From NCBI GenBank assembly GCA_963820065.1, contig CAWFYM010000002.1, positions 27,103-91,102 on the forward strand: a stretch of DNA of 64,000 nt, written 5' to 3'. Position numbers and translations under genes: made by a program. The number at the start of each line of letters is the position of its first letter. The stretch's first letter is position 1. The notes under the pieces were generated by a model that did not search any database, had not been told where the DNA came from, and worked only from the letters and a program-made list of their open reading frames with translations. The DNA comes from an uncultured Actinomycetota bacterium (GTDB lineage Bacteria > Actinomycetota > Actinomycetes > DATJPE01). This document shows positions 40,740 to 63,197 of the stretch, in pieces.

Positions 40740-40766
40740 ATTCACTAGTGTTCGGCACTAGTGAAT
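40740..40766. promoter_or_regulatory. Perfect 11-5-11 inverted repeat, candidate TetR autoregulatory operator
   Basis: ATTCACTAGTG-ttcgg-CACTAGTGAAT, where each arm contains the palindrome CACTAGTG. It overlaps the first possible start of the TetR ORF. Confidence 0.55.
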
Positions 40767-41442: not shown

Positions 41443-41906
41443 GTTCGTGCCCAACGCCCGGCGCTGGGACTCACGCAGTGAGCATGACCTCGCTCATCGG
41501 CCGGCGTGGGGCAGTAGGCGGAACCTCGCCGTACCCCAGCCGAAGCAGGGACTGCGGATAGGCCCATCCACCGTTCGGGTCCCGAACCATCGGCGAGGAG
41601 GACGAGGAGCAGCGCGTTGTCCTCGAAGTCTGCGACCGACCGCTCCGGGACACGGGTCGACATGGCAAAGTCGCGGACCAGGGATGATGTGACTACCGGC
41701 CGGGGGTGAACCCGTCGACGAAGGCAACAACTCAGTCATGGTGGTCGTCATGGGAACTCCCTCAGCGCTGGATCCGCCCCTGGTGAACTAGATCCCTGCA
41801 GGCTGGTGCTCCGGAGGTCCCGGGTGCTAGGGCATGGGGTCCCGGTCGACCGGAATCCTTCCCGCCCCGCGTGGGTGGCGAGAAGGTTCGCAGCTCACGG
41901 TGTTCT

Positions 41907-43184
41907 TCAGGCTTCCACGAGGGCGCGAAAGAAGTCGTTGTCGAATCGGTGTTGCGGATCCCAACGTTCGCGCAACGCGACGAAGTCACCGAAACGCGGG
42001 TACGTCTCGCGCACCTGCTTCGCATTGGACGTGAACAACTTGCCCCAGTGCGGGCGTGCCTCGAAGGGTGCAAGCACCGCCTCGACTGTCTCGAGGACGG
42101 GCAGGACAGCGTCGACGTCGTCCGCCCAGGTGAAGTGCAGAGCGACGCTGTCCCGTCCGTGGCAGGGACTGAGCCAGAGCGAGTCGCTCGCCACCGTGCG
42201 AATCTCGCTGACCTGAAGAACCGGGGCGATGCTGGAGGCGATGCTCTTCAGCGCCAGGAGCGCATTCCTCGCGTGCGCCCGGTCCACGAGGTATTCGCTC
42301 TGGAGCTCGTGGCCGCTACTCGGTGTGAAGTCGGGCCTGAAGTGAGGTATCCGCTCGAACCACGGCCCGGCGATCCCGCCCTGCTGCGTGCAAGCCTCGG
42401 TGGGCATGCCGGGCACGGGATGCCGCCGAGACATCGCGGCACGCGCGGTCGACCAGCTCAGCTCGACTCCGGGATCAGCCGTGTCCCGTTTCACCCACAC
42501 CTGCTCGAAGCGATCGTTCGCCCAGCTGGTGAAAAGGCTGACGCTTCGTGCGCAGTCCATGAGTTCGTCGAAGTGATCGAGCGCCTCGTCGAACGGTAGG
42601 TCGTCCCACACCGTTTGCTTGACGTCGTAGGTCGGAACCAGAGCGAGCTCGGCCCGGACGACGACACCGAGAGCGCCTAGGGCCACGACGGTCCCGTCGA
42701 AATCTGGCTCGCCTCGACTGACGACTCGAAGGTCGCCGTCGGCGGTGACGATCTCCAGCGAATGCGCGGCGGTCGCGAGGCATCCGAGCCCGGAGCCGGA
42801 TCCATGGGTGCCGGTGGCCAGCGAGCCAGCAACAGAGATGTGTGGCAGTGAGCCCATGTTGGCGAGGGCCATCCCGGCGGCCTGAACCAGCGGCGCCAGT
42901 TCACCCCAGCGGACCTGTCCACCGACCGTCACGGTCTGCGCGTCTGCGTTGATGGCCACCGCAGCGGGCATGCGGTCGAGCGCGATCAACACACCTTCGG
43001 TGTCTGCGACGGTCGAGAATGAATGACCGGTGCCGAGTGCGTGGGCATGGCGGGAGGACGCAACGAGCTCGCGGAGCTCGTCCAGGGATCGAGGGTGCTC
43101 GACCCGGCCGGCGGCAAAGTGGACGTTGCCTGCCCAGTTGCGAAGCGCGTCCCTCTCGCTGATGCTCATTTGGGCGACTCGCAA
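41907..43184 (-). CDS. FAD-linked sugar-1,4-lactone / alditol oxidase (ALO family)
   Basis: NWAGNVHFAAGRVEHPRSLDELRELV...HALGTGHSFS, plus the C-terminal ALO domain (RPHWGKLF). Confidence 0.85.
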   Translation of the reverse strand: MRVAQMSISERDALRNWAGNVHFAAGRVEHPRSLDELRELVASSRHAHALGTGHSFSTVADTEGVLIALDRMPAAVAINADAQTVTVGGQVRWGELAPLVQAAGMALANMGSLPHISVAGSLATGTHGSGSGLGCLATAAHSLEIVTADGDLRVVSRGEPDFDGTVVALGALGVVVRAELALVPTYDVKQTVWDDLPFDEALDHFDELMDCARSVSLFTSWANDRFEQVWVKRDTADPGVELSWSTARAAMSRRHPVPGMPTEACTQQGGIAGPWFERIPHFRPDFTPSSGHELQSEYLVDRAHARNALLALKSIASSIAPVLQVSEIRTVASDSLWLSPCHGRDSVALHFTWADDVDAVLPVLETVEAVLAPFEARPHWGKLFTSNAKQVRETYPRFGDFVALRERWDPQHRFDNDFFRALVEA

Positions 43185-43306
43185 GATTCATGGGAGCTGG
43201 CCGAGCCCCGCGGTGAGCCGATCCTAGGGTCGGGGCTCGGGCCGCTTCCAACGTAAGTGCGCCGCGCCCGTCGGACGGCGCAACTGATCGCGGGTGGGAG
43301 ACGACG

Positions 43307-44428
43307 ATGACGATTCCTCTTCCTGACGACGCCCACGTCCTGCTGACACCCCCAGACTCTGACGAGGTCACCCAGGTAGCGGGTGGGGTTCTTGCGGCAG
43401 TAGCAGGGGAGCAGGGTCCCACCGAGCTTCAGCGGCTGCTTGTCACGGCCCTGTTCACGGCCATGACCGGTCACGAGCCAGACTTGTCGACTGCTGGCCC
43501 GGCCGATGCGCAGGAGTTCGCACGCGTCCTTGCGCGACGGAACGAGGCCTACCGACGGCGCATCGTGCAGGTGATGGCGCTGTCCGCACTCGTGGTCCAT
43601 CCGCTCCCAACCACTGTTTCCGACCGCCTCGATGCCTACGCGGACGCGCTCGGCGTCCACGACGGGCTTCTCCGCGCCGCGCGCGACCTAAGCACCCACT
43701 CGATGGCCTTGGTCCAGGTCGACTTCGACCGCAACGGCTACCTCCAAGAGGCGGCAGGCACCCTGGCCGGGACGAACGGGATCGCGGAGGTCTGGGGACT
43801 GGCCGAAGATGACCCTGGACTAGCCGCGCGTTGGTCCGCGCTGGGAGACCTGCCTCCTGACAGCCTCGGTCGCAGGGTCCACGACTTCTACCTGGCGCGC
43901 GGATTCGAGTTTCCGGGTCGACCTGGATCAGCACCGCCGTTGCTGGCTCAGCACGATTGGGTCCACGTGCTGGCCGACTACGGGACGACCGTGGAGAACG
44001 AACTCGAGGTCTTCGGGTTTATCGCACGCGCCAATGACGACCCGCGGGCGTTCAGCCTGCTCGCTATGGTCGTCAGCCTCTTCGAAACGGGCGCCCTCGC
44101 GCGAGGGGCAGGCCTGTTTGAGGCTGACGCCGGTCACCTGTCGCGAACGGGTATGACTCGTCGATTGGGGGATGCCATGCGACGCGGCGCATTGTGCAGG
44201 GGCAGCAACGACTTCCTGGCGCTGGACTGGTTTGCCCTGGCAGACCGCCCAGTCGCCGTCGTGCGGCAGGAGCTGGCCCTTCCCGACAAGAGCCCGATAG
44301 CACGGTCGATGGGCAGCACCGGCCCGTGGCAGCCAGGGGGCATCAGCGCGTACCAGTGGGAGGCGGGGCACCAGAAGGCTGACCGCGAGGGCCGAGAGTA
44401 CGACGGGTACGGCGCGGCTCTCGGCTAG
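43307..44428 (+). CDS. Hypothetical protein with a Coq4-type HDxxH-x11-E motif
   Basis: 373-aa ORF. LAQHDWVHVLADYGTTVENELEVFGF contains H-D-x-x-H then 11 residues then E. Confidence 0.6.
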   Translation: MTIPLPDDAHVLLTPPDSDEVTQVAGGVLAAVAGEQGPTELQRLLVTALFTAMTGHEPDLSTAGPADAQEFARVLARRNEAYRRRIVQVMALSALVVHPLPTTVSDRLDAYADALGVHDGLLRAARDLSTHSMALVQVDFDRNGYLQEAAGTLAGTNGIAEVWGLAEDDPGLAARWSALGDLPPDSLGRRVHDFYLARGFEFPGRPGSAPPLLAQHDWVHVLADYGTTVENELEVFGFIARANDDPRAFSLLAMVVSLFETGALARGAGLFEADAGHLSRTGMTRRLGDAMRRGALCRGSNDFLALDWFALADRPVAVVRQELALPDKSPIARSMGSTGPWQPGGISAYQWEAGHQKADREGREYDGYGAALG

Positions 44429-44486
44429 GGCTGTCAAACCTTGGGCTTTCGCCCGTTGATCTCCTCGGCGTCCCTTGCTTCCGCGG

Positions 44487-45155
44487 TCACACCTGCGGCC
44501 GGCCGAGGCCAGCCTCCCGCGCCCGGATGATGGCCTCGGCTCGGTCGGCGACCGACAGCTTGGCGAAGATCGCCGAGATGTGGTTGCTCACTGTCTTCGT
44601 GCTGATCACTAGTTGCTGCGCGATGGCGGTGTTCGACCGACCAGCGGCGACGAGGTCGAGGACCTCGCGCTCGCGAGACGTCAGCTCCGGGAACGGCGCG
44701 GCTGCCGTCGCCGCTTGGTGACCGCGGGCGAAGAAATCGATGATGCGGCTCGCTACTGAGGGTCCGAAGACGGCCTGCCCGGCGGCGACCGCCCTGATGG
44801 AACGCAGGATCTCCTCCTGCTGGGCGCCCTTGACAACATACCCTGACGCTCCGGCTCGCATGGCTGCGAAGACTGAGTCGTCGTCCTCCAGCATGGTCAG
44901 CACGAGGACTCGGGTTCCCGGCGAGCTGCGCATGATCGCCCGCGTGGCGTCGACCCCGTTCGTCCCCGGCATGTTGAGGTCCATGATGACGACGTCGGGG
45001 TGGGTGAGCTGGACCTCGCGGTGGGCAGCCTCACCGTCGCCCGCCTCGCCGACCACGTCGATGTCGGGCAGCGAGGCGGCCAGCGCCCGGAGACCGTCAC
45101 GCATGAGCGGGTGGTCATCGACGATGACCATCCGAATGATCGACGGCTCGTTCAT
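44487..45155 (-). CDS. NarL/LuxR-family response regulator
   Basis: ATG at 45155 overlaps the kinase stop (ATGA). Receiver IRMVIVDDHPLMRDGL and HTH LTSREREVLDLVAAGRSNTAIAQQLVISTKTVSNHISAIF. Confidence 0.9.
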   Translation of the reverse strand: MNEPSIIRMVIVDDHPLMRDGLRALAASLPDIDVVGEAGDGEAAHREVQLTHPDVVIMDLNMPGTNGVDATRAIMRSSPGTRVLVLTMLEDDDSVFAAMRAGASGYVVKGAQQEEILRSIRAVAAGQAVFGPSVASRIIDFFARGHQAATAAAPFPELTSREREVLDLVAAGRSNTAIAQQLVISTKTVSNHISAIFAKLSVADRAEAIIRAREAGLGRPQV

Positions 45156-47116
45156 GCGGGGTTCAAGGGAAGGACGGCGTGGACCCACCCGCCCTGGTCG
45201 GTCGGGCCAGCGGTCAGGCGACCGCCGAGCTCGGTGGCACGCTCGTTCATGGACATCAGTCCGATGCCCTGCTCCCAGGGCGCTGCTGGTCTTCCCCCGT
45301 CGTCGCTAACTTCCACGTGTAGGCCACCGTCGACCCGAACGGTGATGGCACAACAACGGGCATGGGAGTGGCGCAAGGTGTTGGTCACCGCCTCAGCCGC
45401 GATCCTGTACGCCGCTACCTCCACCGCCGCAGGCATCGAGGGCAAGGACGCTGGGGCGTCGATCGTCACCCGGAACGACCCGTCGTCCCTTCGCCAGGCG
45501 TGGTCGGCGCGCTGGCGCAGCGCACCGACCAGACCGAGCTCGTCGAGGGCCTGGGGACGGAGGTCTTGGACGAGGCGCCGGATCTCGTCGATGGTCGAGG
45601 TGAGGTCCGACCGTAGCTGGACCAACAGCTCGGCGGTCTGATGGGGATCAGAGGAGGAAAGGTTGTGGGCGGCATCGACCTTAAGGGTGACCGCGGTGAG
45701 AGCGCTCCCCAAGCCGTCGTGCAGGTCCCGTCGCAGTCGGCGTCGCTCTTCCTCTCGAGCGGTGACGATCCGGGCCCGCGAATCCTGCAGCTCATGTGAC
45801 AGGTTGACCGCCTGCCAGGCCAAGGTGATCGGCGCAACGAGCATCGTGAGGGCTCGGCGGTCGGCGGCAGACAGGTGAGACTCCCCGGGCCGCAAACCGA
45901 TCAAGAGGTCCGCGTCAGGTCCGTCCGGGACATCGAGGGCGAAGGTTTCGGCGTGCTCCGGTAGCCGGCCATGGTCGGTCACGACCCGGCCCCCTGCGAT
46001 CACGGCGACGTACGGGAGGCGCAGCGTGTCGCAGACCGCGGCTAGGACTCCGTCCAACCCGTCTCCCAGGCGAACGACAACCCGGGCGGTGGCGTCCGAA
46101 GGGTCGCGCCGGCGGCCGTACAACAAGTGGTCCACGCTCGACTGCAGACGAGAACGAACCGGCGCGAAAGCCACCGCGATAGCGCCGACGGCGACCAAGG
46201 GGGCGGCCTCCGTGTGCTGGGTGGAGAAGTCGCCGAGAAGCGCCACTAGCCCCAGGTAGGAAGCGACGACGCCTGCCGTCAGGAGACCGTAGACGATCGA
46301 CCGGTTGACGATCAGCGAGATGTCGTAAAGCTCGTAGCGAACGATCGCGACGGTGGCAGCCGCGGGGATCAAGGCCATCGTCAGCAAGAAAAGAACCGGC
46401 CCATTCGTGGTAACCAGGCGTTGCGCGTTGAGCAGCACGAACACGCTGACGGCCCAGAGCAACCACATCACCTGAAGCCGTTCCACCCCAGTGGAGCGAC
46501 GCGCTCGTAGGCCAAGCGACACCACGCTGATGAGCAGCACGAGCAGTCCGAGGCCGACGAAGAACGGCAGCACGCCCGACGCGACCTGTCCTGCGCCGTC
46601 TGGGAGCAGGGGTCCACTGTCCGCGATCTCCTCCTCGGCCAGGGCGTCAGGTCGGAGAACGAGAAGTGGCGCAGTCACCGTCAACCCGAGCGTCACGGCG
46701 ACCAGCCACCGCCAGCGATCCGAAAGCGGGCGACCGTCCGGAAATAGCTGCAGGATCAGGGGAAGACAGACGAGCGGCGCGGGAATCCAGATACTGATGC
46801 CGACGGCGGTGAAGGCGCGCTCCCAAGCCGGGCTCAGGTCGCCGACGCCCGTGACTATTCCGAGGCAGGCGACGCTGGCGGTGTAGCAGGCACCGAAGGC
46901 CACGAACAGGCGGCCGATCGGGTGCCCAGAGCGTTGGCTGAGGACGAGGACTCCGAACCCGGTGAAGGTCAGCGCCATGACGGAGTTCGACAGGAGGTAC
47001 GAGTCCGCCGCGTCACTCAGCGTGAAACCGCCAGCGAGCCACGACACCCAGGCGCCGAAGACCAGCAGCACCGTGAGAGCAGCCGCCACGGCGGGAAGTC
47101 GCCCCTTCGCGGTCAT
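45152..47116 (-). CDS. Sensor histidine kinase (HisKA_3), paralogue of the kinases at 127 and 34415
   Basis: 654-aa ORF with a polytopic N-terminus. Motif IPAAATVAIVRYELYDISLIVNR, H-box EERRRLRRDLHDGLGSALTA and an ATPase domain. Confidence 0.85.
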   Translation of the reverse strand: MTAKGRLPAVAAALTVLLVFGAWVSWLAGGFTLSDAADSYLLSNSVMALTFTGFGVLVLSQRSGHPIGRLFVAFGACYTASVACLGIVTGVGDLSPAWERAFTAVGISIWIPAPLVCLPLILQLFPDGRPLSDRWRWLVAVTLGLTVTAPLLVLRPDALAEEEIADSGPLLPDGAGQVASGVLPFFVGLGLLVLLISVVSLGLRARRSTGVERLQVMWLLWAVSVFVLLNAQRLVTTNGPVLFLLTMALIPAAATVAIVRYELYDISLIVNRSIVYGLLTAGVVASYLGLVALLGDFSTQHTEAAPLVAVGAIAVAFAPVRSRLQSSVDHLLYGRRRDPSDATARVVVRLGDGLDGVLAAVCDTLRLPYVAVIAGGRVVTDHGRLPEHAETFALDVPDGPDADLLIGLRPGESHLSAADRRALTMLVAPITLAWQAVNLSHELQDSRARIVTAREEERRRLRRDLHDGLGSALTAVTLKVDAAHNLSSSDPHQTAELLVQLRSDLTSTIDEIRRLVQDLRPQALDELGLVGALRQRADHAWRRDDGSFRVTIDAPASLPSMPAAVEVAAYRIAAEAVTNTLRHSHARCCAITVRVDGGLHVEVSDDGGRPAAPWEQGIGLMSMNERATELGGRLTAGPTDQGGWVHAVLPLNPA

Positions 47117-47269
47117 GGCTCATTGTGCGCCCGTGGTTGCCACCTTGGGGTAGGGGCAAGCACCCATCTCCAGTAGGAGAAGCCGGGACAGATGGGTGGG
47201 CGACCCCGCGACAGCCAGCTGCGGTCTGGCCCACAGTCGAGCCAACACGATGACAAACGAGGAGCCACC

Positions 47270-48007
47270 ATGTCTGTTTCCAGGGGATCGATCCCAGCCG
47301 CTCCGCCTCACAGCGGGGAAGCGGAGCCGACTCTGCACGACACTCGACGGTTCTGGCGGATCCTGCTCGCGATCATCGCCCCGCTCCCGATGTTGGCGAA
47401 GGCAGCTGACTACTTGCTCTACCCGACCCCGTCGGACGACTCGTTCGCCGCAAGCGTCGAAGCCTTTGCAGCCCATGAGAAATTGGTCGTCGTTCTGCAG
47501 TGGCTCGACGCGGTCTTCGTGGTCGGCCTAATCCCAGCGGTTGCCGCCGTCGCCTGGGCGACACGGCGAGCCACGCCACGGCTGACCACGGTGGCCGCGT
47601 TCATCACCATGTCTGGCTTCCTCGCAGCGATCGCCATCCTCCCCAATGGGGACCGTGACGCCTTGGTCACCGTTCAAAACGGCTTGGACGTGGCGGCGGT
47701 CGGTCGGCTGAGCGACGCGTTGGACTCCAACCCCGTCGTCGGCCTCGCCTCGCTCGGGTTCATCGTCGCGCTGCTCATCGGATTGCCTCTTCTGGGGCTT
47801 GCGTTGTGGCGCAGCCGGGTTGCCCCAGCCTGGATGGGGATCGCCCTGATCGTCGGTGCGTTCACGCACCCCTTTCTCCAGGTGAGCCACGTCCTCGTGG
47901 CCGCCGGGCTCGTCGTGGCGGCGGTCGGTTTCGGGGGCGCGACCGTGGCGTTGCTTCGTCAGTCGGACCACGAGTTCGACCTGCCGCCTATCGCGGTCGC
48001 ACCGTGA
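47270..48007 (+). CDS. 245-aa DUF4386-like membrane protein, paralogue B
   Basis: GAGGAG then ATG at 47270. LWRSRVAPAWMG and the C-terminal LRQSDHEFDLPP. Same length and layout as the protein at 36562. Confidence 0.7.
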   Translation: MSVSRGSIPAAPPHSGEAEPTLHDTRRFWRILLAIIAPLPMLAKAADYLLYPTPSDDSFAASVEAFAAHEKLVVVLQWLDAVFVVGLIPAVAAVAWATRRATPRLTTVAAFITMSGFLAAIAILPNGDRDALVTVQNGLDVAAVGRLSDALDSNPVVGLASLGFIVALLIGLPLLGLALWRSRVAPAWMGIALIVGAFTHPFLQVSHVLVAAGLVVAAVGFGGATVALLRQSDHEFDLPPIAVAP

Positions 48008-48025
48008 CGTCACCGCAGACCCAGA

Positions 48026-49687
48026 TTGCCCTCAGCTGACAGGCTGGACGCCCCTGCTGCGCGGCCCCAGGATGGGTCCGTGTCCGAGCTCCGGCTGGTA
48101 ATCGCGTCCAGGATCGTCACCCAGTCGGGCGACGACGTCACGGCGCTGCTCGTCGCCGGAGATCGGGTCTTCGCCGCCGGATCGGTGGACGAGATGGAGT
48201 GCCTGGCGCCGGATGCTGGGCGCTGGGACTACGGCGACGTGACCGTCGTGCCCGGCCTCAACGACGCGCACAGCCACCTGACGATGACCGCAGCGCAGGC
48301 GACCGGACTCGACCTCTCAGGTGATGATGTCGACGGGCCGGACGCCCTCGAACGGGCACTGATGAACTTCGCGGAGGGCCTACCGCCGGGGGCCTGGCTG
48401 ATCGGCAACCGCTACGACCACGTGCGCAGCGGCAACGGTCGCCGGCTGACGCGAGCAGATCTGGATCGGCTCGTCCCTGACGGTCCGGCCATCGTGGTGA
48501 ACATCGGCGCCCACTGGGGTGTGGCCAACTCCCGAGCTCTCGCGTTGGGCGGCCTTGACGACGGATCGGGCGACCCGGCGGGCGGACGGCTCGGGCGCGA
48601 CGAACAGGGACGACTCGACGGATATCTCGCCGAGCAGGCGCTGTTTGACTTCGTCTACCCGTCGCTCGCCTCGGGGACGCCGATCGCACCGGTCATTGGT
48701 GTCGATGCCCACGCCGCGGCGATCCTCGAGGTCGCCGAAACGTTTCTCGCCTCCGGCCTCACCTCTGTGGGGGACGCAATGGTCGGGCCGCACGAGCTCC
48801 GGGCGCTGCAGGAGGCGCGGAACCGTGGGCTCGGGCTGAGGGTGAACGCGCTGCTCACCTACCCCAACCTCTCGACGGTCGCCGACCTCGGACTTCGGGA
48901 CGGCTTCGGTGACGAGTGGCTGCGGATCGGGGGGATCAAGGCCTTCGCGGACGGTGCCGTCGCCGGTCGTTCTTGCGCCGTCGCGGAGCCGTTCGAGGGT
49001 ACGGACGATCGAGGCATCCTCACGATGGACGAGGCGCGACTCACCGAGCTCGTCGAGCAGGCGACCGGCGCGGGCGTGCGGCTCGCGATCCATGCCAACG
49101 GGGAACGAGCGATCACCATGGTGCTCGACGCCTTGGAGGCGGCCCCGGATCGGGGGGAGGGTCGCCGGCTCAGGCACCGCATCGAGCACTGCTCCCTCGT
49201 GACGCCGGAGATCCTTTCCCGGATGGCGAGCCTCGATGTCATGGCTGTGCCCTTCGGCAGCTACGCCTGGTTTCACGGCGAAACGCTGATCGGTTGGTAC
49301 GGGCGCGCGCGGCTGGAACGGATGTTTGCTCATCGGTCGATGCTGGATGCCGGCCTCACCGTCGCAGGTTCATCGGACTATCCCTGCGGCCCCTTCGAAC
49401 CCCTGCTCGGGCTTCAGAGCTGTGTCACCAGGCGTTCTCGGCAGGGGAGCGACGTAGGACCGAGCCAGCGGGTCTCGCTGCGCGAGGCCCTGTGGATGTA
49501 CACCGTGGGGTCGGCGACCGTGTCAGGCGAGGAGGCCGTCAAGGGTCGGCTCGCGCCGGGATTCCTCGCCGACTTCACGGTGCTGGAGGGAGATCTCATG
49601 GCCGTGGACGCAGATGAGGTCGGCGCGGTGGAGGTTTTGGCCACGTGGGTCGGCGGCGAGCCGCGCTGGCAGCGTGGGTCTGCCTGA
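48026..49687 (+). CDS. Amidohydrolase-family (Amidohydro_3) metal-dependent hydrolase
   Basis: 553-aa ORF with VVPGLNDAHSHL, LAIHANGERA, HRIEHCS and GSSDYP. The start codon is uncertain. Confidence 0.85.
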   Translation: MPSADRLDAPAARPQDGSVSELRLVIASRIVTQSGDDVTALLVAGDRVFAAGSVDEMECLAPDAGRWDYGDVTVVPGLNDAHSHLTMTAAQATGLDLSGDDVDGPDALERALMNFAEGLPPGAWLIGNRYDHVRSGNGRRLTRADLDRLVPDGPAIVVNIGAHWGVANSRALALGGLDDGSGDPAGGRLGRDEQGRLDGYLAEQALFDFVYPSLASGTPIAPVIGVDAHAAAILEVAETFLASGLTSVGDAMVGPHELRALQEARNRGLGLRVNALLTYPNLSTVADLGLRDGFGDEWLRIGGIKAFADGAVAGRSCAVAEPFEGTDDRGILTMDEARLTELVEQATGAGVRLAIHANGERAITMVLDALEAAPDRGEGRRLRHRIEHCSLVTPEILSRMASLDVMAVPFGSYAWFHGETLIGWYGRARLERMFAHRSMLDAGLTVAGSSDYPCGPFEPLLGLQSCVTRRSRQGSDVGPSQRVSLREALWMYTVGSATVSGEEAVKGRLAPGFLADFTVLEGDLMAVDADEVGAVEVLATWVGGEPRWQRGSA

Positions 49688-49696
49688 GGCGCGGGC

Positions 49697-50530
49697 TCAC
49701 GCATCGCGTCGCAGCAACGCAAACCCGGCGCCGACCACGGCGATCGCCACCCAGGCGATGAACACCACGACACCTTGCTCGTAGCTCAGGAGATCGACTC
49801 CGGTCTGGGCGCCGGTGAACGCGTTGCCCGCGTTGGAGGGGAGGTACTTCAGGACCGACCCCCAGCTCTCGGGCAGCAGTGCGGTCAGCAGCGCCGGGAC
49901 GAACAGCACGCCGCCGATCAAGACACCAAGCCCGGCTCCGATGCCGCGCAGCAGCACGCCGAGAGCGACCCCGAGCACACCGATGCCCACCAGATAGCCG
50001 ACGGTGCCGAGCACATACCCGGCAACGTCGGGATCCGACCAAGCCACGCTCGTCACTCCGCCCTGGGTCAGCAGCGACGTCCCACCGAAGAAGGCGAGCA
50101 GCACCCCAGCGAGAATGATGGGGGTGACGATGGCCACGAACGTGACGGTCTTGCCGAGGAGGACTGGCCATCGCTTGGGCACCGCCGCCAAGGTGGTGCG
50201 GATCATGCCCGAGGAGTATTCGCGCGCCCCGACGAGGACGCCGAGCACGGCCACGATGAGTACCCCGAAGTTGGCTCCGGCCAGCACGGTCTGCAGCGGG
50301 CTCGTGCCAGCGAAGCCCGGACGGCCAGACGGGTCACTCACTTGGCCGCTTGCGACCGCGGCCGAGACGAGGCCGAACGCGACGATGGCGAGAAACAGTC
50401 CGGCCAGGGTGAGCCAGGTGGAGCGCAAGGTGCGCAGCTTGATCCACTCGGAGCGAACGACTCGGCCGACCGACGTGTGGGACTCTCCGGTGTCCACGGC
50501 CATAGGCGCGGGGACGGTGAGGGTGGTCAT
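49697..50530 (-). CDS. ABC-2-type transporter permease
   Basis: 277-aa ORF with six hydrophobic helices. Its start codon shares one base with the ATPase stop. Confidence 0.8.
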   Translation of the reverse strand: MTTLTVPAPMAVDTGESHTSVGRVVRSEWIKLRTLRSTWLTLAGLFLAIVAFGLVSAAVASGQVSDPSGRPGFAGTSPLQTVLAGANFGVLIVAVLGVLVGAREYSSGMIRTTLAAVPKRWPVLLGKTVTFVAIVTPIILAGVLLAFFGGTSLLTQGGVTSVAWSDPDVAGYVLGTVGYLVGIGVLGVALGVLLRGIGAGLGVLIGGVLFVPALLTALLPESWGSVLKYLPSNAGNAFTGAQTGVDLLSYEQGVVVFIAWVAIAVVGAGFALLRRDA

Positions 50531-51240
50531 CAGGCGGCCTTCCGGTCCATGTGGGTGCTGTTCGCGCCGTGGTACTCCACGGCGTCTTGGGTGAGTTCCA
50601 GGAATGCTTCCTCGAGCGACGCGGCCTGCGGGGTTAGCTCATGCAGGGTGATGTGGTTCGCCATGGCGACGTCCCCGATGGTTCTCGCTTCGAGACCCTC
50701 AACGTCGAGCACGCCGTGGTCGCGGGAGACGACCGTCACCTGCGGTGAGGCGAGCAGGTCGCGTAAGGCTGTGGCGTCCGGGGTCACGACTCGCACTCGG
50801 CTGGTCGACGCGGCCGTGATGAACGCGGCCATGCCCACGTCGGCGAGGATGCGGCCGCGGCCGATGACGATGAGGTGTTCCGCAGTGAGCTCGAGCTCGC
50901 TCATGAGGTGGGAGCTGAGGAATACCGTGCGCCCTTCGGCGGCCAAACTCTTGAGGAGGTTGCGGATCCACAGGATGCCATCGGGGTCGAGGCCGTTGAC
51001 CGGCTCGTCGAGCATGACGATCTGGGGATCGGCCAGCAGAGCCGAGGCGATGCCCAGCCGTTGACCCATCCCGAGAGAGAAGCCGCCCGCGGGCTTGCGA
51101 CCGACGTCGGCCAGGCCGACTACCTCGAGGAGGTCGTCCACCCGTCCGGCTCCGATGCCGACGGTGGCGCCGAGCGCCAGCAGGTGGTTGCGGGCTGACC
51201 GGCCTTTGTCGACCGCCTTGGCCTCGAGCAGAGCTCCAAC
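50530..51240 (-). pseudogene. ABC transporter ATP-binding protein, 5'-truncated (no Walker A)
   Basis: The signature and Walker B (FSLGMGQRLGIASALLADPQIVMLDEPVNGLDP) and H-loop (VFLSSHLM) are present. Homology begins only at VGALLEAKAVDKGRSARNHLL, and the N-terminal third is absent. Confidence 0.8.
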
Positions 51241-51250
51241 GGGGCTGGTG
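51230..51250. other. Breakpoint between two unrelated sequence blocks (contig join or chimera)
   Basis: The truncated ABC ATPase (minus strand) and the truncated kdsD (plus strand) meet within about 10 bp, with no spacer, repeat or mobile-element end. Confidence 0.7.
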
Positions 51251-52090
51251 GGGCAGAAGCTGGCCGCGACCCTCGCCTCGACCGGCACCCGGGCGTTCCC
51301 GCTCCACCCGGCCGAGGCGGTCCACGGCGACCTCGGGCCGGATCCGGGCCGACGACGTGGTGATCGCCCTCTCGCAGAGCGGCGAGACCGAGGAGGTCCT
51401 GCGGCTGATCCCGGCGCTCCGGCGGATCGGCGCCAGCCTGGTGGCGATCACCGAGCGGGCGACCAGCACGCTCGGGCGGGCGGCCGACCTCTGCATCGCG
51501 CTGGGGCCGATCGAGGAGGCCTGCCCGCTCGGCCTGGCGCCCGTCGGCCAGCACGACGGCGATGATGGCCGTCGGCGACGCCCTGGCGCTCCTGGTCAGC
51601 CGGATGCGCGACTTCTCGCGCCGAGGATTTCGCCCTCTATCACCCGGCCGGCAGCCTGGGGCGCAAGCTGATGCGGGTCGAGGACGTGATGCGGACCGGC
51701 CGGCACATCCGCCGGGCGCAGCGTCGACGAGACCGTCCGCGAGGTCTTCGTCCGGCTCGCCGGCCCGCGGCGGCGGTCGGGGGCGGTGCTGGTCGAGGAC
51801 GACGACGAGCCGGCTGCTGGGGATCTTCACCGACAGCGACCTCGCCCGCCTGTTCGAGAAGCGCCGCGAGGGCGACCTCGACCGGCCGATCGGCGAGGTG
51901 ATGACGCGCCGACCCGTACCGGGTCGCGCGTCGGGCTCGATGCTGGCCGACGCGGTCGAGCTGATGAAGGCGCACAAGATCAGCGAGCTGCCGGTCGTCG
52001 ACCGGGGCGATCGCCTGGTCGGGCCTGATCGACGTCACCGACCTGATCGGCCTGTCCCGCCGCCGACTTCGAGGAGTCGACGCGAGCTGA
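51240..52090 (+). pseudogene. kdsD: Arabinose-5-phosphate isomerase (KdsD/GutQ: SIS + 2 CBS), 5'-truncated with at least 6 +1 frameshifts as written
   Basis: GLVGQKLAATLASTGTRAFPLHPAEAVHGDLG; DDVVIALSQSGETEEVLRLIPALRRIGASLVAITERATSTLGRAADLCIALGPIEEACPLGLAP; MMAVGDALALLVSRMRDFS; RVEDVMRTG; LLGIFTDSDLARLFE; AHKISELPVVDRGDRLVG. These pieces lie in successive frames. Confidence 0.75.
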
Positions 52091-52094
52091 CGCC

Positions 52095-52653
52095 CGACAC
52101 GACCTGCCGCGATCCCGGCGGAACTCGCCGCGCGTTGCGCGGCGATCGAGCTGCTGGCGGTCGACGTCGACGGCGTCCTGACCGACGGCGTGCATCGTCG
52201 TCGACGACCAGGGCGTCGAGTCGAAGCATTTCTACGTCCGCGACGGCCTCGGCGTTCGCGCTCTGGCAGACGCGCCGGCAAGCGGTCGGCGATCGTCTCG
52301 GGCCGGTCGGCCGAGGTCGTCGAACCGCCGGGCCGCCGAGCTGAAGATCGACCGCGTCGCCCAGGGGATCGACGACAAGGCGTCGGCCGTTCCGGGCGCT
52401 GCTCGCGGAGTTCGGGCTCGACGCCGCGCAGGTCTGCTACGTCGGCGACGACCTGATCGACCTGCCGGCGCTGCGGTCGGTCGGCCTGGCCGCCTGCCCG
52501 GCCGACGCCGTCGCCGAGGTCCGCCAGGCGGCCCATCTCACGACCCGCGCAACCGGAGGAAGAGGCGTCGTCCGCGAGGTCGTCGAGGTCGTCATGAAGG
52601 CGCAAGGGCTGTGGCACGCCGCTTGCGAGGGGTACCGCGTGCCAGCGATGTAA
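52095..52653 (+). pseudogene. kdsC: Kdo-8-phosphate phosphatase (KdsC/YrbI HAD family), about 5 +1 frameshifts as written
   Basis: IELLAVDVDGVLTDG; HFYVRDGLG; GKRSAIVSGRSAEVVE; ELKIDRVAQGIDDKASA; VCYVGDDLIDLPALRSVGLAACPADAVAEVRQAAHLTTRATGGRGVVREVVEVVMKAQGLW. Confidence 0.75.
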
Positions 52654-52763
52654 GCGGGCTCAGGCGGAGCCGCCGTCCCAACCGGAAGTTCGTCCGTGCG
52701 CGATCGAGGTCGTCGCTCGATCGCCGGAACAGGAACTCGCCGACGTTACGGAATGGTTAATTC

Positions 52764-55700
52764 GTGTTCAAGACACTCTTCAAGCTCGTGACCGTGTTCG
52801 GCCTCCTGGTGGTGCTCCTACCAGGGGTACGTCCGCGCGTTCGCGTTCGTGATCAACCGCCTGACCGCGGACCGCCACGTCGACCAGATTCCGTTCGAGC
52901 TCCACGACTCCGACGCCGTGCCGGGGGCCAAGGAGATGGCCCGCGTCTACTTCGGCAAGGACCACTGGACGAGCCGCCCCGACGTCGCCGCTCCACTTCA
53001 ACTCCGACCGCGGCATCTACCTGTATCGCCAAGAAGATCGCCCCGCCCGAGGGCGAGGACGGCGTCAAGGCCGACGGCAAGCGGCTGGTGTTCAAGGGGT
53101 CGCCGTCATCCTCAAGACGCAGGGCGGCCGCAGCACCAAGATCATCACCAGCGAGGAAGCCCGGCTCGACTTCAACAAGCGGCTCGGCTTCGACGCCAAG
53201 CCCGAGCGCCGAGCCCATGACCGTCAAGCACGCCCGGCTCGAGCGCAACGTGATGATCCGCGACGACCGCGGCACGCCCGACGACCCGAAGGACGACATG
53301 GTCGTCGGCCCGCTGACCTGGATCGAGTACGACGACGACAAGCTTCAGGTCCACACCGATTCCGACATCCTCCTGGTCGACCGCGACCTCCGCGTGACGG
53401 CCACCGGCCTGGACATCAAGCTCCGGCCCAAGACCGACCCCAACCGGCCGAGCGGCCCCGCCACGGGCTTCGAGGGCGCCGAGAGCGCCGTCTTGCGCAA
53501 GAACGTCAACATGGTCTTCGGCGACGTCGGCAGCACCGGCGTGCTTCCCGGCGCGGTGAAGACCAAGAAGACGGCCGACGGCAAGATCGTCGCCGAGGCC
53601 GAGGTCGACCCCAAGCTCGCCCAGAGACCGAGCAAGAAGCCGGCCGCCGCGAGCCCGTGCCGCTGAACATCCAGTGCGACGGGCCGATGCAGATCGACCT
53701 GCCCAACGCCCCCATGCCGGTGAAGGTCGGCCCGCCCGCGCCCCCCGCGCCGACGCTCGTCCGGTACAACCGCAACGTCGTCGTCCGCCGCGGCAAGCTC
53801 ACCGAGCTTCCCGACCAGCTCAACTGCGACACCCTCGACCTCACGCTCCTGCCGGCCGAGAAGCCCGCCACGAAGCCCGACGACGCCGAAGCTCGACGAC
53901 GGCTCGCCAAGGCCGACAAGCCGGCCGCGCCGCGAAGCCGCCGCCGCGGCCGACGGCGAGGAGAAGGGCCTCTTCGGCGGCCTGGCGCTCCGCCGGGCCA
54001 AGGCGAGCGGCCACGCGGTCTGGCTCCAGATGCCGTCGCAGGGCGCCAAGGTCCTCTGCATCGAGCTGATCCACAACAAGGACCCGCTCACCGGCAAGAA
54101 CACGACCCACTTCCTGGGCGGCTCGCGGCGGCTGATGGTCATCAAGGAGGACGTCGCGCCAGGAAGGCCCCGACAAGGGCAAGGTTCAGTCGGTCACCCA
54201 CGTCTGGTGCGCCGACGCGACCCTGATCGACGACGGCGACATGGACCGCGCGCACCCTCGTGGCCAACGGCCCCGGGCTGCTGGAAACCCGGCCCGGCCC
54301 CAAGCAGGGGAGGGCCCCCCAGGCGAGACGCCCCCCGACCGCACGGCCGTCTGGCAGGACCAGCTCTGGCTCCGGAACGAGATCGGCCCCGACGGCGCGA
54401 TCACCGGCAAGATCATCGTCCTCAAGGGGCAGCCGCGCGTCGTCAGGACCGGCTCCAGAAGGCCTCGCTCGACGCCGCCGACAGCATCGTCGTCTGGCTC
54501 GAACTCGAAGCCCGAGGCCCCCAAGACCGCCACGACGCTCGACCTCGCGAGGTCGTCCCCGCCGCCTACACGGCCGCCGATCCGGCCTCGACCGCGCCCA
54601 AGCTCGGCGGCGGCGGCATGACCATCCGCCGGCTGCTGGCCGTCAAGGACGTCCACCTGGTCACGCCCGTCGCACGACATCCGCTACCGCGAGAGACCTC
54701 GACGTCGACTTCCAGCAATCCAAGATCACGCGCGCTCGCCCCCGGCGCCCGGCACGCCGCGCCCAAGCCCGTCGCGCCCCCGCCGCCGCGCCGGAGCCGC
54801 CGCCGACGCCTCCGGCCGGAGCCAGTCGGCCGCCCCCGCGCCCAAGCCGGCCGAGCCCCTGATGACCGCCGTCGGCCGACCGCGTGCAGGTCATGATGAT
54901 CGTCGGCCCCAAGCCGCCCGCGCACCGGCCAAACGGCCGCGTCGGCCTCGACTCGCCGATTCCCGGCGGCTCGGACGCGAACTACCAGATCCGCGACGTC
55001 GACGATGCGCGGCGGGGTCGTCCTCCATCAAGACCCCGAGCCGGGCAAGACGAAGGGGACCGACGCCGTCGGCGAAGTCCTCATCCTTCGCAACGACGCC
55101 CCGGGCAAGGCGGTCTTCGACCTGTATCACCACGATCCGTACTCGATCAAGACCCGCACGCATCAACCCCGAGACCATGCCCCGCGCCCGGGTCGAGACC
55201 GAGGAGATGACGATCGAGGCCAAGCGTCATCGGCGTCAACCAGACGACCAACCAGGCCTGGGCCTACGGCGCCGGCAAGCTCACCCAGATGACCGACCGC
55301 GGCCTCCTGACCGACCGCTCGCCCGACGCCCAGAACCAGCGCCGCAGGACGGCGACGACAAGACCGTCGTCGTCGACAAGCCGCAGAAGCGAGCGGGCAA
55401 GGTGAAGTCCGAGAAGACCAAGATCACCATCACCTGGGCCGACAAGATGACCTTCGAGGGGGTCACGGTCGACCCGTATGAACCGGCCCGCCGCCAAGGC
55501 CGTCTTCTACAACAACGCCCGGGCCGAGATGGAAGACGCGCGTGCTCTACGGCGGCGAATCGATCACCACCTACACCGACCGGCCGATCCCGCTGGCCGA
55601 GGTCGGCAAGCTGACCCGGAAGCCGAAGCCCGCCGCCGCGCCGCGAACGCGGAGGACCTGCCGGCCGCCGGCGCGTCGAGGACGAGAACGAGAAGCCCGA

Positions 55701-56750
55701 CCTCGCGCTCATCGTCTGCAAGGGCGAGCCGGGCGCCGTCAGGAACGCGACATGGCCGTGGCCATCACCCGCAAGGTCGATCCCGACCGGCCGGTCCTCA
55801 TGAGCCTGCAGAAGCTCGCCGGTCCAGCAGCTGACCTACGACCGTCGCAGCGGCGAGTTCCTCGCGCCGGGGCCGGGCATGGTCTACCTCTACGACCGTG
55901 AGAACGACCCGACTGAAGCCGAAGGACAACGCCCGCTCCGGCCCTGACCGCCGCGCCGCGTCGGATCGTCCAGCCGACGGCCTACCAGGCAGGCGGCGAC
56001 GGCGACGACAAGGTCGCCGTCCGCAACGCCGACGCGCGGCGCCGCCGTCCGCCGGGACGCCGCGCAAAAGTCGCTGCTGCCGCCGCTTGATCCTCACCCA
56101 GATCCGGTTCAACAAGGAGATGCGCGGACGGTTCGGGACCGGCAAGCAAGACGACGTCGATCAAGCAACGCTGGGCCGAGTTCTTCGGCGGCGTCGAGAC
56201 GGCCCGCTGCGAGGTCCCGGCGTGCTGAAAGCGCCGCTCAACTACGACCACCTGCCGGCCAACGCCTACTTCCTGACCTCGGAGACCCTCCGCGTCATCA
56301 CCGAGCCGCCTCCGGCCGGCTCCGCCGCGGAACGCCCCGAGCCGCAACTTCCTGAAAGCCTGGGACAACGCCTCCGTCACCGCCCGCGACACCACGCTTC
56401 AGGCCGACGTGATCACCTATGATTCGCTCAACGACCTGGTCTACGCCAACGCCCTGGAAGGCCGGAAGGTCCAGATCGCCCAGCAGAACGGCCTCGGCCA
56501 GCCGATCTCGCCGGGCACCGCCACCGGCCGTGCGGATGAACCCCAAGACCGGCGCGGTCGACATGGCCAACCCCAGCGACATCCAGTTGATCGACCACCA
56601 CACCGGCAAGCGTCCCAAGGCGGTCAAGGACTCCGAGCCCGAACCCGGCACCCAAGGACGGGCAAGCCCGCCAAGCCCAAGGAGAAGCGCAAGCCTCCCA
56701 GGCCGCCGCATCCAGAACCGCATGGAACGCCGGGGCTTCACCGGAAGCTG
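52764..56750 (+). pseudogene. Very large N-terminally membrane-anchored protein (possibly LptC/OstA-like by position), many frameshifts as written
   Basis: N-terminal anchor FKTLFKLVTVFGLLVVL, then protein-like segments hopping between all three plus frames for about 4 kb (for example PLNIQCDGPMQIDLPNAPMPVKVGPPAPPAPTLVRYNRNVVVRRGKLTELPDQLNCDTLDLTLLPAEKP). It occupies the slot after kdsD-kdsC. The LptC/OstA family assignment is not verified. Confidence 0.4.
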
Positions 56751-56759
56751 ACCGTCGCA

Positions 56760-56787
56760 TCGCCGGGGCACGCGAACGCCCCGGCGA
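56760..56787 (+). terminator. GC-rich stem-loop after the large ORF (possible terminator)
   Basis: TCGCCGGGGC-acgcgaac-GCCCCGGCGA, a 10-bp perfect stem with no U tract. Confidence 0.3.
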
Positions 56788-57066
56788 CTAGCACGAAGCT
56801 CGCCCGTTCGTCGAGCTGTTGAATCCGCTGAGGCTCATGATGGGTCTTCGAAGTGGCGGCTGTTCGATAGCCGGGGTCTGTGCCCCGAGACCGGGCCGAC
56901 GTGACCGACCTCAACAGAGGCCGGCTACAAGCCGGCCGAGACGACATTGGCAAGCCCGTCACCCCGATATCCATCATGAGCCTCGTCGAGATCGTCAGTG
57001 CAACATGACGGTCATCGATCAACGCCTTCTATCCGAGGCCGTCTTGGTTCAGTCGCCGCTCCTCGA

Positions 57067-58205
57067 TCAATACACCTCGCCCGGCGCGGGGACCGTGGGA
57101 CGAGGGGAGGGCGGAGGAGGCGGCGGCCGGCGAGGGTAGCGGTGGTGCCAGCCTTCGACGGCGCGGATGGTGTTCAGGTCGTCGCGGGTCAGGCCGTAGC
57201 GGCCGAACCAGGGGGTGCCGAGTTCGCGGACGAGGGCGTCGACCTCGGCGACCCGCTGGCGGCCGGTGGTCGGCGGCGAACTCGGTGCGGGCCGCGGCGT
57301 CGGGCTGGAGGAAGTACTCCTTCCAGAAGGCCCGGCCGCCGAGGACGCCCGCGGCCCCGGCGCCCATGCGCCATCTCGACCTGCACGAGATAGTCGGCGT
57401 AGTCGACGCCCGCCGACAGCAAGCACCCAGGGGCGCTCGCTGGCCGCGTCGAGCGCGTGGAGGTTGTCCTCGAGCTGCTCGTCGCTCTCGCGGCCGAGCG
57501 TGCCGGGGAACTCGGCCTTGTAGACGTCGCAGAACCGGCTGAGCTGGCGGGCCGACTCGATCACCGTCTCGGCCTTGCGGTCGAGGAACGAGGCGTCGGT
57601 CTTCTTCTCGCCGCCGAAGGGGAACGCGACGGTCTCCAGCAGCAACAGGATGTCGTGCTTCTTGCACTCGTCGTAGACGTCGCTCGATCATCGCCGAATT
57701 GGTGCTCGGCCGAGTGCGGCTCGGTCGGCTCGAACTGGGCGAGCAGCTTGACGGCGTCGGCCCCCATCAGCTTGATCTTCTCGACGCTCCAGCCCGGCTC
57801 GACCGCCGCCAGCGGCGCGCCGACCTTGTTCTTGGGGCTGGCCGACTTCTCGACCCGGACGAGCAGCCCCTTGTGCGGGCGGGATCGCCCCCGAGGCGAT
57901 CGCCGACCAGGCGCCGTAGTAGGCGTCGATCAGCACGCCCGAGGCCGCCGGGCGCCAGCGTGCCGCATCAGGTCGAGCTTGGCCTCGACGATCTCCTCAT
58001 AGGTCGGCGTCGCGGTCCTCGCCCCTCGGCCTTGAGGGCCTTGGCCGCCATGTCGATCACCGAGCTGTTCTGGTCGAGGGCCAGCATCGTCAGCGTGCCG
58101 TTGGGGTTGCTGATCCGCTGCAGGCCCCGCAGCTTGCCGGGCGTCAGCCCCTTGCTCAGCAACGTCGTGGCGCTCAGCTTGGCGCGAGGTATCCCCGAAC
58201 GACAT
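57067..58205 (-). pseudogene. LacD-like class I aldolase (tagatose-1,6-bisphosphate aldolase family), several frameshifts as written
   Basis: [29 protein letters not shown]; [18 protein letters not shown]; KLMGADAVKLLAQFEP; LLLETVAFPFGGEKKTDASFLDRKAETVIESARQLSRFCDVYKAEFPGTLG; LSAGVDYADYLVQVEMA; GVLGGRAFWKEYFLQPD. These pieces lie in successive frames. Confidence 0.65.
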
Positions 58206-58604
58206 GGCCGACCTTCTTCTCTGTCTGGACGCCTACCGAAATTCCGACGAACGAGCCGCGACCGCATTCTAACCGGCTCGCGTGGCCGACGCCAGGCCGA
58301 CGCGATTGCGGACGCGCGGGCCAATCGCTTACGAACGGCTCGATCCGTTCGGACACGTCTGATGGCCGATGCATGGGCGCGGCGTGGCCGGGATCCGGCC
58401 AGCGTGCTCGATACACAAGGGATTGCGAGCACGCCTTGACTTCGTTCGCACCGGGCCCGCTCGACTGGGGCCGGCGTCCGGGCCGCGACGGCTCTCCCCC
58501 GTCGCATTCGCATCGCATTTCCATCCAACGTACGCGGGCCGGCCGCAGGCGTCCGCCCCCAGAGAGGGACCGCCACGGCCGCCGCGGATCGGAGAGTCTC
58601 CGAC

Positions 58605-59672
<1,068 letters not shown>

Positions 59673-59879
59673 GCCGACGCTTGAGCCGCGATCCGTCGGA
59701 AAAACTCCAGCCGCCCGCCGCGAGCGTCGATAACAGTGTGTCGGATGGAAGATCCGACCCGGTCAGGGAAGACCGAGACCAGGCCCCGTAATCCTCGGTC
59801 GCGTCCAGGGACGGATGCGCGACCCGCGGGCCAAGGGCCAGGGAAGGCCCCTGCTTCAGATATTCGCGGTATCGCAAGC

Positions 59880-59914
59880 GCCCCGCCGGTTTCACGACCC
59901 GGCGGGGCGTTTTG
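59880..59914 (+). terminator. Rho-independent terminator
   Basis: GCCCCGCCGG-tttcacgac-CCGGCGGGGC followed by GTTTTG. Confidence 0.6.
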
Positions 59915-59950
59915 CATTGCGCCGGCCGTCGCGACCGAACCTGCGATGCC

Positions 59951-60515
59951 TCAGCGGGCGCCGACGCCGATCAGCACGCGCATGCCGTCGCTGAGCGCCC
60001 GCTCGTAGAAGAAGAGCTGGTTCTCGGGGGCGTCGACCAGGGTCGAGAACCGCTGCTCGGTCGCCGTCGATCAGCTCGCAGCGGAGCCGGACGCGGCCGA
60101 AATCGTCGGGCGAGGGGGCGCCAGCGTCGTCTCGGCCCGCCAGCCTCGGCCCAGGTCGCACGTCAGCGATCTCGCCCGGCATCGAGCCGGCCGCTCTGCA
60201 CTTCGAGCAGCTCGAAGCCATGATCGGGCAAGACCTTGCGAAGCTGCGCCTTGACGCTCGACAGCCGGGGGTCGATCTTCGACTCCCCCGGCATCGCCCG
60301 GATCGCGAACACCGTCACCTGCGGCGCCGCGGCGGGATCGCGACGTGGGAAGCCGCGGATGAAGGGGCGTTCGGGAGGGGGGAGCGGCGACCGGCGACTC
60401 GCGCACCAGGTCCGGCAGTCGCTGCGTCACGATCAGGCCCGAGACCGAGACTCCGACGACGACCAGGGCGATCTGGAACCAGCAGCGTGTAGTCGCGCCG
60501 CCGGGGCGTGGGCAC
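59951..60515 (-). pseudogene. Hypothetical membrane-anchored protein downstream of the anti-sigma gene, frameshifted as written
   Basis: MPTPRRRDYTL, the TM segment FQIALVVVGVSVSGLIVTQ, then VTVFAIRAMPGESKIDPRLSSVKAQLRKVLPDHGFELLEVQSG and a tail ending at the TGA (59951-59953). The pieces lie in several frames. Confidence 0.35.
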
Positions 60516-60522
60516 GAGAGGC

Positions 60523-61069
60523 TTACTCCGACATCGCGACGACCGGGCTGATCGTCATCGATTCCAGGAGGTTGTAGGCCAGGTACCAGGCGTCCACCCC
60601 GCCGGCGCCGAGCTGGGCCGACAGGTCGATCGCCTGCACCGTGTCGGCGTTCGAGCGGATCAGCACGAACTGGCCTTCCTCGATCCGCACGTTCGAGCGG
60701 TCGCAAGCTGGCCATCCGTCGATCCGCACTACCGGCTCGCGGTCGGCCCCACGCCATCGACAGGCCGAGGGCCAGCAAGATCGCCGCGGCCTGGGCGAGC
60801 ACCACCGTCGCGGCGGCGGCGGCCACCGCCAGCGGAGCGTCGGCGTCGCGACGGAGCGACGTGGACGGACGCCTTCACGTCGGGCCACGGCCGGATGAGT
60901 CGGACGCCGTCGCGGAGAGCCGATCAAGATCGTCGGCGACCGACGTCCAGACCTGATCCCACGCCTGAGCCGAGGGCTCGACCGGACGGGTCGCCTCCCA
61001 CAGGGCGTCAAGCCGGGCGGCCGGATCGCGGATTTCTTCGTCGCCACGCATCGTTCCCATCCTCTCCAA
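60523..61069 (-). pseudogene. Putative single-pass anti-sigma factor, frameshifted as written
   Basis: It starts 7 nt after the sigma stop. Cytoplasmic N-terminus (MRGDEEIRDPAARLDALWEATRP), TM segment AAAAATVVLAQAAAILLALGLSMAW, then an extracytoplasmic tail ending at 60523. Confidence 0.45.
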
Positions 61070-61075
61070 ACACCT

Positions 61076-61656
61076 TCAGTCGAGCCCTTTGAGCTGGTTC
61101 CAGTCGAGCGCCGCCTGCAACTTCTCGCGGGCCGCGTTGATCCGGCTCATGACCGTCCCGATGGGGACTTCCTGGGTCTCGGCGATTTCCTTGTAACTCA
61201 TCCCAAGCTCGGCGAACAGGACGAAGGTCGTGCGGATCTTGGGGGAGAGCCGGTTCCAGCGCCTCGTCGAGCGCCCGTCGCAGGTCTTGCTGTCGCAGCC
61301 GCCGTCCCGGGTCTTCGTCGATCGTCGCCGTCCGAGGTTCGCTCGTCGAGGGGGACTGTTCGCTTCCGCTTCCGGCTCCGACCCCAGTCGAGGGCCGAAT
61401 TCGAGACGATCCGCAGGAGCCAGAACCGGAACCCGCCCCGGCCGTCGAAATCGGCCAGCCGCGAAAACGCCTTCAGCAACGATTCTTGAACCACGTCGAG
61501 GGCGTCGTGCTCGTTGCCCAGCAGCCGGTAGGCCACCCGGTAGGCGTCGTTCCGATGCCGCTGAAACAGCTCCTCACGCGCCGCCGAATCCCGCTGCCGG
61601 GCACGCTGAACCAGGACTTCATCGGTGATCGGCGCGATCGTCGGGGCCTCGAGCAT
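61076..61656 (-). pseudogene. ECF sigma-70 family factor, two +1 frameshifts as written
   Basis: Region 2 is intact (REELFQRHRNDAYRVAYRLLGNEHDALDVVQESLLKAFSRLADFDGRGGFRFWLLRIVSNSALDWGRSR). Region 4 (SPKIRTTFVLFAELGMSYKEIAETQEVPIGTVMSRINAAREKL) lies in another frame and ends at 61076. Confidence 0.75.
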
Positions 61657-62940: not shown

Positions 62941-63197
62941 AAACTCGACGCGGCCGTCGACACGCCCGGCGTACACACGTTCGCCGCGGCGTTTTTTTAC
63001 TCGCGAATCGCGGCGACTTTTTTGAACTCGCCGTGAACTGCAAGCCGCCAACCTGACTGGTTTCCCGGGAATCTTCCTCGAAAAAACTGTAGCGTGACGC
63101 AAAACGAATCAAGCATAATCACAAGACACAAGGGATGACGTACAGCCCGCTGGCTTGCATGACCGCTCTTCAGAGCGTACCTTAATAGAGCCAAGCC

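Follow-up and report, generated by a model that had tools for sequence, protein, structure and literature searches.

A probable technical chimera of actinobacterial and Paludisphaera-like planctomycete DNA in a deposited metagenome contig

Results

Our analysis of a 64-kb stretch of DNA (64,000 nucleotides, hereafter the window) suggests that the junction between positions 51,239 and 51,240 is, with high probability, a technical chimera within a deposited metagenome contig of 107,411 bp. The segment to its left (1..51239) is high-quality Actinomycetota sequence with intact genes, as judged by tetranucleotide frequencies (TNF), GC content, a check for frameshifts and Pfam matches. The segment to its right (51240..64000) belongs to a Paludisphaera-like member of the Isosphaeraceae and has a poor consensus, as judged by colinearity, TNF, GC content and frameshifts. 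The original prediction was that two unrelated sequences had been joined here, as a chimeric assembly or a bin contaminant, and it is supported by the phyla found on the two sides, by TNF, by the blunt form of the join, by an intact copy of the interrupted gene in a sister genome and by a step in the density of frameshifts.

Actinobacterial homology stops at window position 51237 in blastn comparisons with three actinobacterial loci (L005, L006 and L007), which themselves run on into the 5' part of the ATPase gene past the equivalent of that position. Paludisphaera homology begins at 51240 in blastn comparisons with P. borealis CP019082 (locus L001) and two related records, this position being the second base of codon 65 in the 340-aa P. 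borealis KdsD. With these end points and a three-way, base-by-base alignment, the join (51238..51240) is blunt, with an ambiguity of 0-2 nt, and the comparison found no microhomology beyond the AA at 51238-51239. It had been claimed that two genes are cut back to back at about 51,240, with no spacer, direct repeat, IS end or att-like sequence between them, and both truncations do converge on this one point. Searches at the join found no repeats, direct repeats, IS end or palindrome (the matches around it were at chance level), and no integrase or tRNA either; ARAGORN detected no tRNA genes, and Rfam no family at gathering threshold, anywhere in the 64-kb window, which is also free of any N.

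On the left, the interrupted gene is that of an ABC transporter ATPase, of which a minus-strand fragment is left (50530..51239, residues 76-310 of 310), recognized by Pfam ABC_tran and by alignment to P0123, the 310-aa orthologue from a near-identical sister genome. The fragment is identical to P0123 at 235 of 236 positions over residues 76-310, and what is missing are residues 1-75, including GPNGAGKST (Walker A); the minus-strand ORF (50530..51288) accordingly matches ABC_tran at profile positions 82-137 of 137 only, in line with the expectation that the N-terminal third, with its P-loop, had gone. These 75 amino acids are found nowhere else in the window. P0123 is intact, with its N-terminus, on a sister contig of 896,709 bp, and the N-terminal 75 residues lie directly upstream in 26/26 actinobacterial relatives examined, most of which have a HisKA_3 kinase and a LuxR-type regulator ahead of them. 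The neighbouring ABC-2 permease gene (49697..50530, minus strand, 277 aa) is intact: the orthologue P0125 from JGI is of equal length, with 265/277 identical residues and 0 frameshifts, and the match to Pfam ABC2_membrane_2 is weak (24.6 bits, below the gathering cut-off of 27.2 bits). A metagenome scan with this permease returned only relatives at 78-80% on short contigs, none of them of the same species and none reaching the junction.

Across the join runs a fused ORF of 252 aa (P0121; 50530..51288, minus strand), which begins at a GTG, reads through 16-17 codons of KdsD in antisense (MPVEARVAASFCPTSPV) and continues into the ATPase fragment. Its exact sequence is present in a public protein collection, where an exact-sequence look-up found it recorded from NCBI/ENA on one 107,411-bp contig only, and it is a member of the same protein cluster as P0123. 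Since the fused ORF is in that collection, the join belongs to the deposited record and is not a by-product of the cutting of the window. The 30-mer across the junction has no match in GTDB representative genomes or JGI metagenome contigs, neither of which includes the source contig itself; this absence lends weak support to a chimera and is consistent with the sister genome having the gene intact.

The remainder of the left segment is consistently actinobacterial. Among the best 80 GTDB species-representative loci with a relative of the ATPase fragment, essentially all are from Actinomycetota, the top match being MAG MFD09730.bin.2.34, with 83% amino-acid identity. One sister contig, of 896,709 bp, carries near-identical copies of the genes at 43.3, 45-47 and 49.7-51.2 kb, and the counterpart there (P0127) of the histidine kinase at 45152..47116 is identical at 648/654 positions; the exact sequence of the 373-aa protein at 43307..44428 is recorded from two contigs, of which the longer is again that of 896,709 bp. 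The sister contigs are very long, which is compatible with a long-read origin. Pfam domains in the left-side genes were matched at full length, and the content seen includes several HisKA_3 kinases and urease alpha. The closest relative of the left side comes from a MAG collection produced from Nanopore data only, with metaFlye and Medaka (PMC12313526). In this relative (L005, positions 9722-10711; CAWGZO010000001.1 of MFD09730.bin.2.34) there is an apparent frameshift near the 5' end of its own ABC ATPase gene, with 14 residues in one frame (from 9778) and the remainder (...IAVDHISFSVKPG...) in another. This change of frame indicates that consensus indels are present in that long-read MAG set too.

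On the right, the window is colinear with P. borealis CP019082 from 51240 to 62394, the end of the reference locus used, at ~85% nucleotide identity, and eight genes follow each other as they do in the chromosome of P. borealis and in related MAGs: KdsD and KdsC come first, followed by the gene for a 1,340-aa protein, a pair of DeoC-family aldolases, a pair of small genes and then an ECF sigma factor. KdsD (arabinose-5-phosphate isomerase; 51240..52076, plus strand) is a fragment with SIS and CBS domains that comprises residues 65-340 of 340 and contains 9-11 single-base frameshifts, its reading frame shifting about every 100 nt. Once the frame is repaired, it is 88-89% identical to Isosphaeraceae proteins, P. 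borealis included. A KdsD-type isomerase starting in mid-domain without a start codon had been predicted at this place, and the start of homology at 51240, in codon 65, bears this out; of the predicted protein the fragment stands but not the reading frame, which breaks after '...HGDLG' at about 51334 through a frameshift.

The genes that follow are similarly affected. They are a KdsC-like phosphatase (52094..52650, plus strand, 5 frameshifts; 161/179 residues identical to P. borealis after frame correction, and supported by synteny), the homologue of the 1,340-aa P. borealis protein (52683..56745, plus strand, 36 frameshifts; 1014/1291 identical, frame-corrected), a homologue of DeoC/LacD-family aldolases (57070..58205, minus strand, 13 frameshifts; 312/362 identical, frame-corrected, with synteny), a second DeoC-family homologue (58605..59669, plus strand, 3 frameshifts; 315/351 identical, with a match to Pfam DeoC), two small conserved hypothetical genes, homologues of 182-aa and 172-aa proteins, placed by synteny (59954..61051, minus strand, 7 frameshifts in total), and an ECF sigma factor homologue (61079..61656, minus strand, 2 frameshifts; 176/190 identical to P. 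borealis). Frame-corrected, the right-side genes have 79-93% protein identity to P. borealis, and the Kdo-pathway proteins KdsD and KdsC have 87-90% amino-acid identity to those of Isosphaeraceae. Further on, a zinc-ribbon (PF13719/PF13717) protein fragment of Paludisphaera type, with an internal stop or frameshift (63198..63710, plus strand), has its best match in P0134 from a P. borealis MAG (69% identity, E = 3e-70), which lies on an 89,458-bp contig; the KdsD-bearing contig of locus L002 is likewise of 89,458 bp. This gene at 63.2-63.7 kb, with its best match in a P. borealis MAG, implies that the foreign segment reaches the end of the window, and no return to actinobacterial sequence was found right of the join within the window. 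Pfam gave no match for six right-side ORFs, as expected of frameshifted fragments. We found no planctomycete genome of the same species, the best KdsD identity being 89%, so that single errors and real base differences are not separable on this side.

The contrast between the two sides extends to composition. With 4-kb windows set to begin at the junction on either side, each of the 12 on the left was nearer to the left TNF centroid (distances of 0.016-0.022, versus 0.036-0.049 to the right one) and all three on the right were nearer to the right centroid, so that each of the 15 windows fell with its own side; GC content is 0.672 on the left versus 0.692 on the right. The tetranucleotide profiles thus separate cleanly at the junction, and the best-match phyla, compared side by side, are Actinomycetota on the left and Planctomycetota (Isosphaeraceae/Paludisphaera) on the right. 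The taxonomic break that had been placed at about 51,240 is therefore borne out by both homology and composition.

A step in frameshift density, which had escaped the first reading of the sequence and adds to the original prediction, falls at the same point. Frameshift-aware protein-to-DNA alignment against P. borealis proteins covered 8.96 kb of right-side coding sequence and counted 75 frameshifts there, or 1 per 120 nt (39 in seven genes and 36 in the 1,340-aa gene); +1 insertions account for 59 of them and -1 deletions for the other 16. On the left, five genes (7.1 kb in all) were aligned to independently sourced orthologues and contain 0. The same method applied to controls gave 0 for the P. 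borealis MAG (L002), and 3 and 8 in divergent genes of a more distant Isosphaeraceae MAG (L004), the value of 8 being that of the 1,340-aa gene, for which L002 gave 0. In the 1.54 kb directly left of the join, ~13 frameshifts would be expected at the right-side rate and 0 were seen (P = 2.5e-6), so that the step in consensus error rate falls exactly at the join. Such a step is an independent technical signature and suggests that read support differs between the two sides.

Among 27 single-base insertions that could be placed with confidence, C was inserted 16 times and G four times on the plus strand; 15 of the 27 create a CpG and eight extend a homopolymer. Such strand-asymmetric, context-dependent insertions would fit a consensus derived from one or few reads of one orientation. 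Compared with documented error profiles, the pattern (C-biased, CpG-creating and mostly outside homopolymers) was not established as a match to any. Two other measures were tried and given up. Counts of gaps not a multiple of 3 in blastn alignments were unreliable in divergent regions, where the control comparison of L004 with L001 also gave many, and were replaced by the frameshift-aware alignment with its controls; tiling with GC3-filtered ORFs as a measure of gene integrity was dropped, its threshold being too strict for the left side.

Discussion

A chimera should unite different organisms, should break abruptly within genes at a point with no features of a biological junction, and should not be reproduced elsewhere. 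Here an actinobacterial left side meets an Isosphaeraceae right side that is colinear with P. borealis, the break lies abruptly inside genes and has no such features, and the junction is matched neither by its 30-mer nor, outside one contig, by its fused ORF, with the full-length ATPase present in the sister genome and in 26/26 relatives. We propose that an abundant actinobacterial genome would have been assembled with a good consensus, and that DNA from a rare, unrelated Paludisphaera-like planctomycete would have become attached to it, most likely through a chimeric long read, in which two fragments were ligated during library preparation, or through a mis-extension that the assembler left unbroken. 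The planctomycete part would probably have had very low read support, too little for polishing, and single-base errors, mainly of the +1 type, would then break every gene in it. The gene caller may have found a GTG in antisense KdsD and thereby produced the fused 252-aa "ABC" protein across the join. The sequencing platform, the low coverage and the step that made the join are elements that we infer.

A join inside a deposited contig, with both genes cut at a single point as by illegitimate recombination and every right-side gene disrupted, could also result from a transfer between phyla, in which at least 12.8 kb of Isosphaeraceae DNA was integrated by illegitimate recombination into the ATPase gene and is now decaying as pseudogenes. 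We regard this as very improbable. Pseudogenes old enough to have accumulated 1 indel per 120 nt should bear many neutral substitutions and nonsense codons, with a dN/dS moving towards 1, and their indels should be biased to deletion; such a deletional bias in bacterial pseudogenes was reportedly described in 2001 by Mira, Ochman and Moran. What we find in the frame-corrected right side is a dN/dS of 0.265, indicative of purifying selection (versus 0.313 between two intact Isosphaeraceae genomes), a single stop in 1,686 aligned codons, and indels biased 59:16 in the opposite direction, to insertion. These three observations together imply consensus error over functional genes and not decay, and the damage on the right is best read as sequencing or consensus error that probably left the underlying genes functional. 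A history of transfer and decay is also hard to reconcile with a frameshift density that changes exactly at the join, with the intact ATPase gene in the sister genome, or with a junction at which neither an integrase nor a tRNA nor a direct repeat is found. A genomic island should show machinery for integration or traces of a target site (an integrase, a tRNA or att site, direct repeats) and should be flanked by host sequence at either end. Neither is found here; the right side is visible to the end of the window only, and host sequence does not appear again within it. If the frameshifts had a separate technical cause, the junction itself could be physically real, the product of a very recent inter-phylum uptake of an Isosphaeraceae block of at least 12.8 kb, related to Kdo/LPS, into the ABC gene; this version seems to us less probable still.

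A technical origin could also be simpler than a chimeric read or an error in the assembly graph, in that a contaminant contig may have been pasted to another contig of its bin with no N spacer during scaffolding, binning or submission. The blunt join with no overlap, two genes truncated as contig ends would truncate them, the difference in consensus quality between the sides and the absence of any N in the window would all agree with such a concatenation. We nonetheless consider it unlikely, given that scaffolding in standard pipelines puts Ns between contigs and that a gene in the public record was called straight across the join; sequence alone fails to separate it from a chimeric read, and it would be equally technical and have the same practical meaning. 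Hardly credible, finally, is the idea that the right side is authentic actinobacterial DNA, planctomycete-like by convergence or ancient sharing, and that the break is a strain-specific rearrangement. Nothing but the physical contiguity in the record speaks for it, and it is contradicted by 11 kb of sequence that matches P. borealis gene for gene and in the same order at ~85% nucleotide identity, by the shift in TNF, and by the close similarity of KdsD and KdsC to their Isosphaeraceae counterparts.

As a probable technical chimera, the junction resembles known chimeric or contaminant MAG contigs in its abrupt change of phylum and tetranucleotide profile, in the truncation of genes on both sides of a blunt join, in the lack of mobile-element features, in its occurrence in one assembly only and in the intactness of the locus in a close relative. 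It differs from the usual case in that consensus quality drops sharply, from no frameshifts to 1 per ~120 nt, a step which locates the join independently of taxonomy and is known here from sequence alone. Long-read assemblies retain coverage-dependent indels that disrupt gene calls (PMC9262707), and the right segment is like the frameshift-rich, low-coverage long-read consensus addressed by IDEEL-type tests, in which single-base indels fragment every gene and the corrected proteins are highly similar to their orthologues. Unlike the classic errors of Nanopore consensus, which in that work are mainly homopolymer indels, the insertions found here are of the +1 type, lie mostly outside homopolymers and are biased to C on one strand. 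Like a horizontally acquired genomic island, the region has a stretch foreign in both composition and taxonomy that adjoins a disrupted host gene. It departs from such islands in that integrase, tRNA and direct repeats are missing, host sequence does not resume within the window, and the cargo is broken by errors with no signature of decay; moreover, neither the phyla of donor and recipient nor a cargo for Kdo synthesis in a host presumed to be monoderm makes sense functionally.

The significance of these results is thus for data quality and not for biology. The public 107-kb contig and its genome bin would carry at least 12.8 kb of planctomycete contamination, and the fused ABC/antisense-KdsD protein P0121 is already in protein databases as a cluster representative. 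Annotation based on this contig would wrongly credit an actinobacterium with Kdo/LPS genes and would bring in dozens of protein fragments. A step in frameshift density can, on the other hand, place a chimeric join to the base even without reads.

Several further features were noted in the two segments and in related sequences. The 1,340-aa protein encoded after KdsC (11623-15645 in L001) has no Pfam domain and is uncharacterised, although it is conserved in Paludisphaera and related Isosphaeraceae; its homologue in the window (52683-56745) is 79% identical after frame correction and likewise lies beside Kdo-pathway genes. The left 51 kb has an unusual density of NarL-type two-component systems, with at least four HisKA_3 histidine kinases (127-2001, 5871-7466, 34415-36544 and 45152-47116), three of which have a long N-terminal region with no Pfam match (one has a weak HisKA_7TM) and the fourth a DUF7134; homologues of LuxR-type regulators adjoin three of the kinases (7463-8122, 33777-34409 and 44499-45137). 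A 908-aa ORF on the minus strand (37737-40463) has only a weak match to a right-handed beta-helix, and two further long ORFs (17196-18749 and 29757-31250) have no Pfam domain; some of these three may be shadow ORFs of a high-GC genome and not genes. In the 440-aa ORF at 10207-11529 (plus strand) the class-I fructose-bisphosphate aldolase domain is found from residue 99 onward only, and the true start probably lies downstream of the listed TTG. P0131, a 191-aa member of the dimethylglycine-dehydrogenase-like cluster to which the window gene at 2319-4799 belongs, is encoded on a 430,917-bp NCBI/ENA contig and ends in an arginine- and proline-rich tail (…RTRGDAPRAPGRRLDRIDARG); it is apparently a further gene call cut short by a frameshift, in a related assembly of long contigs.
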